Below are positions 8,904 to 64,000 of a stretch of DNA of 64,000 nt, piece by piece. Below the pieces are notes generated by a model, which saw nothing but the letters and a program-made list of their open reading frames with translations, searched no databases and was not told the DNA's origin. Position 1 is the first letter of the stretch. Each line of letters starts with the position of its first letter. The DNA comes from Candidatus Omnitrophota bacterium (GTDB lineage Bacteria > Omnitrophota > Gorgyraeia > Duberdicusellales > 4484-171). The translations under genes were made by a program, and so were the position numbers. The DNA lies in assembly GCA_021735655.1 (NCBI GenBank), contig JAIPGM010000003.1:214836-278835 (forward strand), given 5' to 3'.

Positions 8904-10091
8904 ATGTTTAGTTCAATTGAAGATATTTTAGCTGATATTTTAGTCGGAAAGCCAGTAATCGTAGTCGACGATGAGGCTCGAGAAAATGAGGGGGATTTAG
9001 TAGTTGCTGCTGAATTCGCTACTCCTGAGGCGATTAATTTTATGATTAAGGAGGCTCGGGGTTTAGTTTGCGTTCCGATGGAGCGTTCGCGAATCGAAGC
9101 TCTTGATTTAGAGCCAATGCATCATAAGCCTTCCCGAGATCCTTTCAAAACAGCTTGGCGAGTTTCAGTAGATGCTGCTACTGGAGTTACTACTGGTATT
9201 TCAGCCTTTGATCGTTCAAGGACTATTTCAGTTTTAATTAACCCTGAAAGTAAACCAAGCGATTTTACAAAACCAGGCCATCTATTTCCTCTAGAGGCTA
9301 AAGACGGTGGAGTACTGACAAGAACTGGGCATACTGAAGCTGCTGTAGATTTAGCTAAGTTGGCAGGGGTTTACCCGGCTGGAGTAATTTGTGAAATAAT
9401 AAAGGAAGATGGTTCAATGGCTAGGCTTCCGGGTTTGATAAAGTTTGCCAAAAAGCACGGGTTAAAGATATGTACCATTGCTTCGTTAATTAAGTATCGC
9501 AGCAAGAAAGAAAAACTAGTAAAGTTAGTTACGGAAGTCAATTTGCCTACCGATTACGGACAGTTTAAACTTTTTCTTTACGAATCTTTACTTGATGGAT
9601 CTGAGCACTTAGCTTTAGTTAAAGGAACGATAAGTGAAAAATCGGTTTTAGTACGTGTGCATTCAGAGTGTCTTACTGGAGATATTCTTACTTCGCACCG
9701 TTGTGATTGTGGTAATCAACTTCATCAGTCGATGAAAATGATTGCTGATTGCGGTGGGGTCCTTCTTTATATGCGTCAGGAAGGAAGAGGAATTGGTTTA
9801 AAAGCTAAGATGAAAGCTTACCATTTACAGGAGAAAGGCCTTGATACTGTCGAGGCAAATCAGAGCTTAGGCTTTGCTTCCGATCTTAGAGATTATGGAA
9901 TCGGAGCCCAGATTTTGGTAGAATTAGGGGTTAGGAAAATAAAACTTTTAACTAATAATCCTAAGAAAATAATCGGTCTCCAGGGGTATGGTTTAGAAAT
10001 TACTGAGCGGGTGCCGATAAAAAGTGTCGCACATCCAGAAAGTGAACGTTATCTTAAAACTAAGAAGAATAAATTGGACCATATATTGTAA
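8904..10091 (+). CDS. ribBA: Bifunctional 3,4-dihydroxy-2-butanone-4-phosphate synthase / GTP cyclohydrolase II
   Basis: N-terminal DHBP synthase (...[18 protein letters not shown]...) and C-terminal GTP cyclohydrolase II (CxxC...C zinc motif ...[21 protein letters not shown]...); 395 aa. Confidence 0.9.
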
Positions 10092-10103
10092 GAGGAGGTA
10101 GCT

Positions 10104-10562
10104 ATGAAAGAAATAAGAGGCAGTTTCTCCGGTAAAGGAAAAAAAATCGCCATCATTGTTTCCCGATTTAACGAATTTATCAGTAATCAGTTGCTTGCCG
10201 GATGTGTTGACGCTTTAAAGAAGTCAGGCGTAGCCGATGGCAGTATTTCGGTTATTTGGACACCGGGAGCTTTTGAGATACCACAGGTATTGAGCAAGTT
10301 GGAAACAAAGAAGTTTGATGCGGTTATTGCTTTGGGGGCGGTAATTAGAGGTGAAACTCCCCATTTTGATTATATTGCTTCTGAAGTTTCTAAAGGAGTT
10401 GCTCGTTTTGCTCAAGATAAAAAAGTTCCAGTAGTCTTCGGAGTAATCACCGCTGATACAGTTGAGCAGGCAGTTGAGCGCTCTGGCACTAAGCAAGGCA
10501 ACAAAGGTCGCGATGCTGCCTTAAGTGCTCTAGAGATGGCAGACATTTATTTGCAAATTTAA
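10104..10562 (+). CDS. ribH: 6,7-dimethyl-8-ribityllumazine synthase
   Basis: ...KIAIIVSRFNEFISNQLLAGCVDAL... and ...ALGAVIRGETPHFDYIA... lumazine synthase signature; 152 aa. Confidence 0.9.
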   Translation: MKEIRGSFSGKGKKIAIIVSRFNEFISNQLLAGCVDALKKSGVADGSISVIWTPGAFEIPQVLSKLETKKFDAVIALGAVIRGETPHFDYIASEVSKGVARFAQDKKVPVVFGVITADTVEQAVERSGTKQGNKGRDAALSALEMADIYLQI

Positions 10563-10585
10563 TTTTCGATATTTGATTTTTTAAA

Positions 10586-11005
10586 ATGCGTTTACGAACA
10601 AAATCCCGGGAGATTGCCCTAAGTCTTCTCTACCAAATAGAGCTGTCAAAAATTTCCCCATCAGACGCCCTCAAGAATTATTCAGAACAATATCCCCAAA
10701 AACAAGAAGTTATTGATTTTTTTTCTTTGTTGGTTGAAGGTGTGCATAAAAATATGGACCAAATTAATTTTTTGATAAAAAAGTATGTTAAGAACTGGGA
10801 AATTAGCAGAATGGCAGTTATTGATCGTAATATTTTGCGTTTAGCTTGTTTTGAATTATTGTTTTTAGACGATATTCCACCCAAGGTAACCATCAACGAG
10901 GCAATTGAGCTTGCCAAGCGTTTCGGTGATTTAGATTCGCCGCGATTTGTTAATGGCATGGTAGATAAAATATATAAAGCCGAGGGCAAGAATGTTGATA
11001 AATAG
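10586..11005 (+). CDS. nusB: Transcription antitermination factor NusB
   Basis: 139 aa; ...DRNILRLACFELLF...INEAIELAKRFGDLDSPRFVNGMVDKI matches the NusB fold. Confidence 0.8.
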   Translation: MRLRTKSREIALSLLYQIELSKISPSDALKNYSEQYPQKQEVIDFFSLLVEGVHKNMDQINFLIKKYVKNWEISRMAVIDRNILRLACFELLFLDDIPPKVTINEAIELAKRFGDLDSPRFVNGMVDKIYKAEGKNVDK

Positions 11006-11840
11006 AGTTAGCAATGATCGCTGCGATTTACATATTCATTCTAAGTTTTCTGATAGTGACTTAGAAGTAGAGGATATTTTTAAGCAGGCTAAAGAAAAAG
11101 GCCTTCGTTGCATTGCTATAACTGATCATGATACATGCGAAGGCATTCCTGAAGCTCGAATTAATAGTAAGAAATATGACATTGAGCTGATTGAAGCTTT
11201 TGAGTTAAGCGCTCAACACAAAGATGTTGAGGTTCACATTCTAGGCTATTTTGTTGATTCTGATAACTTAGAGTTTCGTAAAGAGTTGGATGAGGTTAAA
11301 ATATCGCGGCGTAATCGACTCATTGAAATGACTGAGGTTTTAGCTTCCTTAGGCTTAAAGGTAGACCCAAAAGAGTTAATGTCAATGGTTGGCGATATAG
11401 TACCAACTCGTTTGCATCTAGCATTATATCTTTTGAATAAAGGAATAGTTTCATCTTTGTATGAAGCTTTTCGAAAATATCTTTCGCCGGGCAAGCCAGC
11501 TTATCGGGCTCGCTTTAAGCATTCGGTAGCTGATGCAGTTAATCTAATTAAAAAGCATCAAGGACTTTCCTTCTTGGCTCATCCGCATATAATAACTAGG
11601 CAGGATTGGGTTGAAGAGTTTCTTTCTTTAGGCATAGACGGCTTAGAGGTGGCTTATTCGAGCATGTCTCCGGCTAAAAAATTGATGTACGGTAATTTGG
11701 TAAAGAAGCTTGGTCTTCTTAGGAGCGGTGGTTCTGACGCCCATGGCAGTTATAAGCAGTTTACCAAAATTGGCAAAATAACTATTCCTTATCAGTGGGT
11801 TGAAGAAATGAAGGCCCGTCGAGAAGCTTTAAAAACTTAA
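10992..11840 (+). CDS. PHP-domain metal-dependent phosphoesterase
   Basis: N-terminal CDLHIHSKFSDS and ITDHD motifs of the PHP (polymerase/histidinol phosphatase) superfamily; 282 aa. Confidence 0.7.
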   Translation: MLINRVSNDRCDLHIHSKFSDSDLEVEDIFKQAKEKGLRCIAITDHDTCEGIPEARINSKKYDIELIEAFELSAQHKDVEVHILGYFVDSDNLEFRKELDEVKISRRNRLIEMTEVLASLGLKVDPKELMSMVGDIVPTRLHLALYLLNKGIVSSLYEAFRKYLSPGKPAYRARFKHSVADAVNLIKKHQGLSFLAHPHIITRQDWVEEFLSLGIDGLEVAYSSMSPAKKLMYGNLVKKLGLLRSGGSDAHGSYKQFTKIGKITIPYQWVEEMKARREALKT

Positions 11841-62055: not shown

Positions 62056-62133
62056 GGTGGATGTAGCTCAGGTTGGCAGAGCACTTGATTGTGGTTCAAG
62101 ATGTCGCGAGTTCAAATCTCGTCATCCACCCCA
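62056..62133 (+). tRNA. tRNA-His (anticodon GTG) with genomically encoded G(-1) and CCA
   Basis: G-1 at 62056 pairing with discriminator C73 (62130); acceptor GTGGATG/CATCCAC; D-arm GCTCAGGTTGGCAGAGC; anticodon stem CTTGA/TCAAG with loop TTGTGGT (anticodon GTG); T-arm GCGAGTTCAAATCTCGT; CCA at 62131-62133. Confidence 0.9.
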
Positions 62134-63559
62134 ATGTTCTTTTTTTACCTTCCAGAAGAAAATTAAACGGAATTTTGTAAGAAAATGAGAGATTTTTTTG
62201 AAACAGCCGGAAGTTCAAACCAATTTTTTCCAAGAATTCTCTCTGGGGGGCGGGGTTTGCCGCCAAGGCAATACAACCGGCTTGGTGAGCAAGAGTTAGG
62301 AAGTTTTTCATCGGTTCGAACCATTTCCCGTCACTGTTTTGGGGGTTAGTTTCCCAATCAACCTTCCTGTTTACTAATTGGTATTTTTTCTTTTTATATT
62401 CTTCCTCAGATATCCCGCCGTCAATATATAGATCAAGCAGTTTTTTGAGCTTCTGGTTTATTTCTTCTATCTTTATTTCAGCGCTGCGCTGGGTGTGGAT
62501 TTTACCGGCCTCAAAAAGCCCGATTTCCCGCTTAAGCTCATTCATCATTAGAGAAAAAATGCCGTCATCAAGCTGAATCGCAAGAATGGCCGTTTTGATT
62601 TGTTCGGTTAGCTCTTCCTCGCGGGTGTATTTCTTCTGAGAACAGGGGCCTTTGCGTTTGGTGCAGCGGTAGTAATTATGCCCTTTTTGGTTCTCGGCGG
62701 TGATTTGACAGCCGCATTCAGCGCAGCGCATAAACCCTTTTAGGGCGAAATACCTATTTTTATGGAGGATAGCTTTACTTTTTAATTTTAAAACTTCCTG
62801 AACTATATCAAAGAGTTCTTTATCAATTATGGGCTGGTGGGTGCCTTGATATAGTTCGCCTTTAAAGGAAAAGGCACCGTAGTAAAAAGGGTTATGCAAA
62901 ATTCTTGCGATATTACTGATAACAAGAGGTTTCTTGAATCTCTTGCTCACCAAGCCTAAAGCAGCCGCCAATTTTTTTAAATCGTCCAGAGTATATTTAT
63001 TCTCAGTGCATAAGAGAAAAAGTTTTTTAACCAGCGGCGCCACCGCTTCATCCACTAAGATTTTGCCTTTGCCGTCATTAGTATAACCGATCGGGGCAAA
63101 GCCCGGGTATTCACCACGCCGTAATTTTTCTCTTATGCCGCGCTTGGTATTTTCACTTAGGTTATCCACGTAATACTTTGATTGGCCGAAGCTGATACTA
63201 AGCATAAACTTGCCCTGGGCCGTATTGTCAAAGCGGTAAGTAGGAAAGCGTAAATCAACGATGTTACCGATGTCGGTGAGGTAAATGATTTTTCCGCCGT
63301 CAATGGAGTTTCTAGCCAAGCGGTCAGGATGCCAGGCAATAATGCCATCGGCTTTACCTTGCTCAATAAGTTTAATCATTTGGTTAAAGACCGGCCGGCC
63401 TGGTGACCTGGCAGTTTTTGCTTCCTGGAATTCATCGATAATGGCCAAACCTTCCTTTTTAGCAAACAGTCTTGTTTCGATTAACTGCGATTGGATAGAG
63501 AGGACTTGCTTATCTTCGGTATCAGTAGATTTACGCACGTATAAAAAATATTTGTTCAT
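62096..63559 (-). CDS. Large serine recombinase (resolvase catalytic domain, recombinase domain, zinc ribbon, coiled coil)
   Basis: N-terminus MNKYFLYVRKSTDTEDKQVLSIQSQ (catalytic Ser in the YxRxST context); ...GIIAWHPDRLARN...; zinc-ribbon CAECGCQ...YYRCTKRKGPCSQK; C-terminal tail encoded inside IR-L, with the stop inside the tRNA-His gene. RBS GGGGG upstream of the ATG at 63559 (ORF track starts 11 codons further up at 63592). Confidence 0.85.
   Translation of the reverse strand: MNKYFLYVRKSTDTEDKQVLSIQSQLIETRLFAKKEGLAIIDEFQEAKTARSPGRPVFNQMIKLIEQGKADGIIAWHPDRLARNSIDGGKIIYLTDIGNIVDLRFPTYRFDNTAQGKFMLSISFGQSKYYVDNLSENTKRGIREKLRRGEYPGFAPIGYTNDGKGKILVDEAVAPLVKKLFLLCTENKYTLDDLKKLAAALGLVSKRFKKPLVISNIARILHNPFYYGAFSFKGELYQGTHQPIIDKELFDIVQEVLKLKSKAILHKNRYFALKGFMRCAECGCQITAENQKGHNYYRCTKRKGPCSQKKYTREEELTEQIKTAILAIQLDDGIFSLMMNELKREIGLFEAGKIHTQRSAEIKIEEINQKLKKLLDLYIDGGISEEEYKKKKYQLVNRKVDWETNPQNSDGKWFEPMKNFLTLAHQAGCIALAANPAPQREFLEKIGLNFRLFQKNLSFSYKIPFNFLLEGKKRTLGWMTRFELATS
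62128..62262. repeat. Left 135-bp inverted repeat (IR-L) of the recombinase element; overlaps the last 6 nt of tRNA-His
   Basis: 62128-62262 is the exact reverse complement of 63733-63867 (perfect 135/135, checked by reading both). Starts ACCCCAATGTTC... (ACCCCA = tRNA-His nt 71-76) and ends ...GGGGGGCGGGGTTTGCCG. Confidence 0.9.
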
Positions 63560-63732
63560 TTTTCTAGCCCCCTTTTTTTTAGATATTAGCAATAAAAATA
63601 AAAATCCAGCCCAAGGTATTTTAGGAATTCTGTTTTAAAAAAAATTGGCGGTTGCTTTGACTCTACCTTAAGGACAGAGGGGCTAGATTGCCTTGGGATG
63701 TGCCGAATGGCGCAAGGCTTGCGGAGCAAGCC

Positions 63733-63867
63733 CGGCAAACCCCGCCCCCCAGAGAGAATTCTTGGAAAAAATTGGTTTGAACTTCCGGCTGTTTCAAAAA
63801 AATCTCTCATTTTCTTACAAAATTCCGTTTAATTTTCTTCTGGAAGGTAAAAAAAGAACATTGGGGT
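63733..63867. repeat. Right 135-bp inverted repeat (IR-R) of the recombinase element
   Basis: Perfect reverse complement of IR-L. Encodes on the + strand the same 45 residues (...ANPAPQREFLEKIGLNFRLFQKNLSFSYKIPFNFLLEGKKRTLG) that IR-L encodes for the recombinase C-terminus on the - strand (ORF 63693..63914). Confidence 0.9.
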
Positions 63868-64000
63868 CCCTATATCAAAAAGTCAGAACCCATTTTAAAG
63901 AAAAATACAAATAACGTCTATTCTTATTTTGATCAGCATTACTAAGTTATCGAATCGCAACTGACCATATCGATATAACCACTCCAGCGACATCTAATAG

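Follow-up and report, generated by a model that had tools for sequence, protein, structure and literature searches.

Why should the gene for a large serine recombinase (LSR) be bound up with a long and perfect inverted repeat, one arm of which completes a tRNA gene? The question is raised by the end of a 64,000-nt stretch of DNA from a Candidatus Omnitrophota bacterium (contig JAIPGM010000003.1), the whole of which is referred to here as the window. By comparing the locus with its relatives, we conclude that positions 62128 to at least ~63915 are probably the tRNA-proximal end of a small LSR-driven integrative mobile element residing in the gene for tRNA-His, a member of an apparently undescribed and widespread family of tRNA-targeting serine integrases.

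A repeat search recovered two arms of 135 nt, IR-L (62128–62262) and IR-R (63733–63867), that are 100% complementary and spaced 1470 nt apart, at the same coordinates as in an earlier description made from the sequence alone (the original prediction); a chance origin of such a repeat is impossible. tRNA-His(GTG) was called by both ARAGORN and Rfam at 62057–62133 on the + strand, with G-1 at 62056. IR-L starts at nt 71 of this tRNA, with ACCCCA (nt 71–76; 62128–62133, + strand) inside the arm, and the repeat thus completes the 3' end of the tRNA, as had been claimed. This is what is seen at tRNA-integrating islands: the tRNA-His is intact and its nt 71–76 are restored by element sequence.

The recombinase gene (62096–63559, − strand) encodes 487 aa from an ATG, with an alternative TTG start at 63592, and its earlier assignment as an LSR was upheld by matches to the Pfam domains Resolvase (PF00239, E = 2.9e-21), Recombinase (PF07508, E = 4.1e-10) and Zn_ribbon_recom (PF13408, E = 7e-10). 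Among 23 homologues the catalytic motif YxRKSTD (Y8, R10, K11, S12, T13 and D14) is invariant, plus a DRLARN motif, and the four zinc-ribbon cysteines (C280, C283, C300 and C307) are likewise invariant in the homologue alignment; residues ~340–410 sit at the expected position of the coiled coil and are a candidate for it by position. The zinc-ribbon region matches the structure of the A118 integrase C-terminal domain, and the solved structures as a whole gave distant matches alone (A118 and SPbeta integrases; E about 1e-5). A database search returned thousands of LSR homologues and no exact match to the window LSR under any of three alternative starts. Viral contigs contributed 18 matches, two of them at ≥45% identity; the viral matches being so few, the family is not mainly phage-borne.

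The gene does not lie between the arms, as had been supposed. Its open reading frame crosses all of IR-L and then runs 10 codons antisense into tRNA-His, so that the minus strand of IR-L codes for the last conserved ~45 residues of the protein (~433–477). Homologues at 50–74% identity cover 96–100% of the query, and their alignment continues through the part encoded by IR-L. Many of them end in LGW..G[FI]EP.T, the reverse-complement translation of the tRNA-His 3' end, and distant homologues end in NWRGRRDSNPR-type tails derived from other tRNAs. Two smaller features of this region were set aside: the G-rich tract in the repeat is plain coding sequence (ANPAPQ), and the short palindrome reported at ~62263–62285 is a weak 5-bp stem within coding sequence.

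Family loci were sampled from species-representative genomes (80), from metagenomes (80) and by exact look-up (two), and each was examined by self-BLAST, tBLASTn and ARAGORN, the survey totalling 163 loci. Of the 163, 137 have the LSR bracketed by an inverted repeat, with arms of 40–200 nt that are mostly 97–100% identical, and a convergent tRNA overlaps the downstream arm in 101 loci, typically by ~6 nt. The targeted tRNAs comprise 11 specificities (His, Ser, Gln, Arg, Ala, Asn, Lys, Asp, Trp, Gly and Glu), and the hosts are labelled as Omnitrophota, many Patescibacteria lineages, Elusimicrobia, Verrucomicrobia, Nitrospirota and others; the family layout is also seen in a complete genome, at L033 (CP174360.1). 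The architecture that the original prediction had called unusual is therefore both genuine and conserved across a family. That prediction was right about the repeat and the LSR, and it missed the read-through reading frame, the family conservation and the T-loop mimic described below.

What the repeat represents became apparent from at least 12 loci in which a second inverted repeat adjoins the first, and in 12 of which three junctions were aligned. Site T consists of the tRNA joined to a core and an arm that we call X; site U consists of a different arm, P, joined to the core and X, in inverted orientation; and site R, past 1.3–8.4 kb of cargo, consists of P joined to the core and host DNA, in direct orientation to T. 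The inner site (U) and site R have identical P arms, T and the inner site have identical X, and common to all three is only a stretch of 4–10 nt beginning at tRNA nt 71. Judged from these junctions, T is by definition attL, R is attR, and U is an intact, inverted attP. An attR with a displaced core in direct orientation was seen in 12 or more relatives, and across the family the internal attP shares 75–200 bp with attL and 100–370 bp with attR.

Applied to the window, this anatomy makes nt 1–70 of tRNA-His the host-side (B-type) half of attL and IR-L its X arm (P' arm). The six tRNA nucleotides within the repeat are the attachment (att) core, supplied by the element and assigned by analogy with the 12 relatives, from which we infer crossover within tRNA nt 71–74. 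IR-R is the second copy of X, including the core as TGGGGT (63862–63867), and supplies the P' half of the inverted attP inside the element, whose P arm is formed by the next ~45 nt (63868 to ~63915, − strand, outer limit approximate). On the minus strand the P arm reads GGGTTCTGACTTTTTGATATAGGG up to the repeat edge, followed by ACCCCA; it occurs once in the 64-kb window and is homologous to the corresponding arm of L082.

The assignment of the two half-sites is supported by their internal spacing. The flank outside the upstream arm is conserved across hosts and tRNA types, with the consensus ..gAAAaaaGTTCGAAtTTt.TccAA.A.ACA ending at the repeat edge, and the GTTCGAA that it contains is a copy of the tRNA T-loop sequence. 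Measured from the repeat edge, this motif begins at 23 nt in the family consensus of the P arm and at 18 nt in the tRNA (67 loci); of 85 loci compared one by one, 77 show a difference of precisely +5. It is established for LSRs that the zinc-ribbon motif lies ~5 bp further out in attP than in attB, as in the LI integrase model (PMC3783163). Because the 5-bp shift matches this attP/attB geometry, we take the conserved arm to be a P-type half-site and the tRNA a B-type half-site. In the window, the T-loop motif GTTCAAA (62110–62116, + strand) lies 18 nt from the repeat edge, and the mimic GTTCTGA in the P arm (63883–63889, − strand) lies 22 nt from it.

In the mechanism that we propose, the zinc-ribbon domain would read the T-loop sequence GTTCGAA in the tRNA as well as its mimic in the P arm, 5 bp (here 4 bp) further out, and this geometry would license attP × attB recombination with strand exchange within tRNA nt 71–74. 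The X arm would restore tRNA nt 71–76 and at the same time keep the LSR reading frame whole. The free form would carry two inverted attP sites around the LSR cassette, of which integration would consume one and leave the other intact; gene conversion would keep the long arms identical, and the arms would make the cassette invertible. In the present genome, the cargo would be followed by an attR of the form GGGTTCTGAC...GGG + ACCC... and host DNA, in direct orientation. Of the three explanations offered by the original prediction, the arm of a larger island extending past the window end comes closest to this, in that the relatives do continue through cargo to attR; here the contig appears to break first.

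The cargo between the inner attP and attR consists mostly of anti-phage defence genes, including GmrSD, an Mrr_N/GmrSD_N/Schlafen-domain protein, type III restriction-modification, AbiE, KAP NTPase, NYN, AAA_21 and a pPIWI-associated nuclease; an ABC transporter, a multicopper oxidase and genes of unknown kind were also found. The cargo is nearly always transcribed divergently from the LSR, and its orientation is essentially fixed. Presence/absence polymorphism was observed at the same target, as two genomes syntenic with the window genome (L182 and L185) have the same tRNA-His with host genes directly after it and no element, and the relative L002 is occupied. The gene found after tRNA-His in the empty-site relative, which would be expected past the element here, has a homologue, MCF7908493.1, on another contig of the source metagenome-assembled genome (MAG). 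A search of host flanks beyond attR against all loci revealed no empty sites among the fetched loci. In L185 the sequence 3' of the tRNA resembles the first ~20 nt of X. In L182 (11400–11440) the tRNA-His 3' end (ACCCCAGTTTTTTT) pairs with the downstream AAAAAAACTGGGGT in a terminator-like hairpin, and the native attB region is therefore itself palindromic.

A further conserved feature marks the inner edge of the upstream arm. The palindrome reported at ~63713–63731 is present, with its position corrected to 63716–63732, as a 7-bp hairpin (GGCTTGC-GGA-GCAAGCC, with a GNA-type triloop) that abuts the inner edge of IR-R in the upstream region of the LSR, and it is conserved in the family. When named structures were counted in 126 unique loci, a hairpin stood exactly at this edge in 66, compared with 4 of 126 for a control window, and six of six hairpin pairs change on both sides with pairing kept. 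This first hairpin is GC-rich, very often with a C-GAA-G triloop (the stable GCGAAGC type), and is usually followed by an A/T-rich second hairpin (CAAAAC-GAA-GTTTTG) and then by a CCAATCTTTTT / CCAATCTTTTTTCTT box; examples in relatives are L017:5878–5915 and L043:5880–5915.

The two arms do not diverge independently. Arm identity within an element exceeded that between elements in 167 of 186 pairs of related elements, so the arms are continuously homogenized, in agreement with the earlier suggestion of ongoing recombination or gene conversion; such concerted evolution, as read from the aligned arms, points to gene conversion. It also bears on the first of the earlier explanations, a self-inverting switch of the kind formed by Hin, Gin and Cin, in which the LSR would flip its own gene relative to outside promoters such as that of tRNA-His and this would be the main purpose of the repeat. 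Perfect, concertedly evolving arms would suit such a switch, and the recombinase gene lies inside an invertible, inverted-repeat-bounded segment, as hin does. Both orientations exist in nature: the cassette is flipped in seven loci, where the tRNA is co-directional and upstream, against ~101 convergent loci. L083 is a complete flipped example at tRNA-His, and one lineage shows both states at a single tRNA-Asp, flipped in L074 and unflipped in its relatives L003 and L090.

Support for a switch of this kind is nevertheless only partial, and we consider it improbable. Hin, Gin and Cin are small (~190 aa) invertases that act on near-identical 26-bp sites with the help of an enhancer and Fis, whereas here a 487-aa LSR faces sites that differ in their outer halves (tRNA versus P arm), within a mobile element and with a skewed orientation; there is no small invertase with a C-terminal helix-turn-helix, and the crossover sites are not equivalent. 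The skew holds across independent lineages, the P arm being upstream and the tRNA downstream in about 82 informative loci (a ratio of ~82:7). With the crossover core placed at the outer border of the repeat, the reaction does not need 135 bp, and the third site and the cargo indicate an integrative element; moreover, RecA acting on 135 bp of identity could equally invert the cassette. Pairs of the attL/attP type are not recombined by characterized LSRs, the A118 integrase having shown no attL × attP reaction and <5% attP × attP (PMC3556126). Given the skew and these partner rules, the repeat is not a freely flipping switch.

Several loci depart from the standard layout. In L085 and L089, a P-type arm adjoins the arm at the LSR 3' end and defence cargo converges on the LSR, and L035, L084 and L150 likewise have P-type arms on both flanks; such P/P flanks would be the expected look of an unsplit attP in the free form. 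The L085 cassette is ~93% identical to that of L001. In L126 (33–1940), the cassette stands between two convergent tRNA-Ser genes (GCT and TGA), with the repeat extending ~30 nt into both, and looks like the product of both attP sites reacting with tRNA genes. In L001 (2067–2090, −) and L083 (3325–3350, −), the arm at the LSR 3' end is a ~19-nt tRNA-His 3' fragment (GTTCGAGCCCCGTCAGGG followed by ACCCCA) with B-type spacing, in which GG replaces the tRNA CC and around which neither ARAGORN nor Rfam detected a tRNA body. L028 (1–4664) holds two tandem LSR cassettes that are ~91% identical; they are separated by a 1.66-kb segment that has a complete attP-like site (P+X, 289 nt) on either side, the two sites being inverted. 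Finally, L026 (4,636 nt) has a 51-nt terminal direct overlap and may be a 4.6-kb circle; in it the LSR 3' arm joins a P-type arm in an attP-like junction. Its upstream region is partly N-masked and rearranged, and we judged it too ambiguous to serve as evidence.

For the spare attP itself, we rank a role as a live second site first, if tentatively: it would permit integration in either orientation, at other tRNA genes, or by cassette exchange. A smaller share of the explanation goes to regulation, with the site, set between the LSR and its divergently oriented cargo, acting as an operator bound by the LSR or as an antisense element, a possible but rather doubtful role that comes second; a dedicated Hin-like expression switch is less likely than either. 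More speculatively, and on balance unlikely, the two inverted attP sites might constitute a natural cassette-exchange and inversion module, by which an LSR that operates without a directionality factor would let the retained attP react with additional tRNA genes and other att sites, moving a 1.7-kb recombinase module between tRNA genes and shuffling defence cargo in the manner of a multi-site shufflon; a generic read-out of the T-loop would open any tRNA to a single integrase family.

That the spare attP is purely regulatory, a res-like operator as in Tn3 or a template for an antisense RNA that would run from the P arm through X into the hairpins and pair with the 3' end of the LSR mRNA, with no strand exchange at all, appears to us more improbable still than the switch. 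Such a role would account for the skewed and stable orientation; the site is invariably situated between LSR and cargo genes that diverge from each other, the conserved hairpins begin exactly where the X copy ends, and one sigma-70-like match in the P arm (63920–63892) points into X. Promoter matches are, however, below chance (one found versus 3.9 expected in a scan for promoters and terminators), and an operator needs ~50 bp, not 135 bp plus the 100–370 bp of identity with attR; the tRNA-Ser pair of L126 and the P/P arrangements also suggest that the inner site has exchanged partners.

The remaining earlier explanation, a minimal insertion sequence (IS)-like element, corresponds to a 1740-bp transposon with 135-bp terminal inverted repeats that enters tRNA 3' ends, and is very improbable. 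Many homologue contigs measure only 1.7–2.1 kb, about the unit size, and CC flanks both outer repeat edges in the window. Assemblies that break at the repeats account for the short contigs, and the shared CC is a coincidence: flanking dinucleotides match in 5 of 58 loci, the chance level, leaving no target duplication. Beyond the upstream arm lies the conserved, element-borne P arm, which recurs in attR past the cargo; there is therefore no transposon bounded by the repeat. An assembly artefact or chimera, or an IR-R that is simply the edge of an inverted second tRNA-His, is scarcely conceivable: although the locus is at, or close to, the end of a contig and the short-read assembly of the source sample (Logan, SRR12088349) breaks ~30 nt into IR-L, the same layout in 137 independent assemblies from different assemblers, including the complete genome, excludes an artefact, and only 6 nt of IR-R are tRNA-derived, with no tRNA called beyond it.

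Breaks of this kind are common in the family, whose contigs very often stop some hundreds of nucleotides beyond the upstream arm. The source contig, too, apparently breaks just outside the inner attP (278,835 bp; neighbour protein MCF7908044.1, DUF748, Candidatus Omnitrophota MAG). In a metagenome contig of 11.6 kb (L103), the two ends (1–2071 and 9496–11566) form a perfect 2,071-nt inverted repeat, each end holding a whole LSR cassette; this may be a composite structure or an assembly palindrome and is too ambiguous to be used as evidence.

Several observations weigh against the proposed integrative element. The window ends 133 nt past IR-R and contains no second P arm, no cargo and no attR; the extent of the element in this genome is thus taken by analogy from its relatives, with cargo and attR expected past the last position of the window. 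Recombination by the LSR is likewise deduced from what appear to be its products (attL, the inner attP and attR), and a clean circular free form was not recovered, the one candidate (L026) being masked and rearranged. The offset of the T-loop motif is +4 in the window and in its relative L082, so that the window clade does not show 5 bp. Most loci that lack a repeat are on truncated contigs, and about eight evaluable loci are repeat-free. The closest homologue, L081 (74% identity, tRNA-His), is without the upstream repeat arm, so the spare attP can be lost; in that locus (1–460) another gene lies directly upstream of the LSR. The orientation skew, the essentially fixed orientation of the cargo and the restriction of characterized LSRs to attP with attB (PMC3556126) speak against a live role of the inner attP in inversion. 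The P/P and tRNA/tRNA flanks, the tRNA fragments and the tandem cassettes are accounted for only in part.

An integrative element of the kind proposed shares with known LSR elements (phiC31, Bxb1, A118/LI and SPbeta) the same three-domain recombinase, an attP × attB reaction giving attL and attR at a short core, and a zinc-ribbon motif placed ~5 bp further out in the P-type half-site. It differs from them in its target, the 3' ends of tRNAs of many specificities recognized through a universal T-loop read-out, in having the att core inside the integrase reading frame, and in retaining a complete, inverted second attP; similarity to the solved LSRs is distant, and no directionality factor was identified here. 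In the literature that we covered, which is incomplete so that a prior description is possible, we encountered no account of a tRNA-targeting LSR that has a T-loop mimic or that retains an inverted attP, and a search of Durrant et al. 2022 (PMC10083194) did not turn up the word tRNA.

Known tRNA-integrating islands, such as the tycheposons of Prochlorococcus, are likewise small defence and cargo elements at tRNA 3' ends, with the tRNA restored and presence/absence polymorphism. Unlike the family described here, they are bounded by direct repeats of the 3' part of the tRNA and have no internal inverted att site, and they rely almost exclusively on tyrosine integrases (910 of 937 in the tycheposon study, 10.1101/2020.12.28.424599). 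Geometrically, the closest parallels are found elsewhere. The donor in engineered phiC31 cassette exchange is a cassette with two inverted attP sites, and the yeast 2-micron plasmid (FLP/FRT, 599-bp inverted repeats) is a circle split into two unique segments, one of them with the recombinase gene, by repeats that hold the recombinase target, as the free form here would be. FLP, though, belongs to the tyrosine recombinases, and the 2-micron plasmid is capable of autonomous replication, whereas the small elements of this family, whose circular form we infer, showed no replication genes.

The family comprises hundreds to thousands of members, in which attP, attL and often attR can be read from a single genome. 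Serine integrases are widely used genome-engineering tools, and the retained attP spares the usual reconstruction of that site. The shift of the T-loop mimic constitutes an independent natural test that supports the zinc-ribbon offset model, and the T-loop read-out suggests how one protein family retargets to many tRNAs. The current picture of serine integrases predicts neither a retained inverted attP, nor long repeats evolving in concert, nor a core within the reading frame; together the three raise a testable question about the control of directionality, or about regulation, in a system that has no known directionality factor. The elements are, in addition, small vehicles of anti-phage defence in little-studied and mostly uncultured phyla, and they systematically break metagenome assemblies at tRNA genes.

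With respect to the remainder of the window, nearly all 1-kb bins have a positive GC skew, and the cumulative skew climbs steadily to a plateau in the last ~2 kb, the skew being ~0 only across the element (62–64 kb). Long open reading frames at 40–62 kb are nearly all on the + strand, and the region seems to belong to a single replichore with a strong gene-strand bias.

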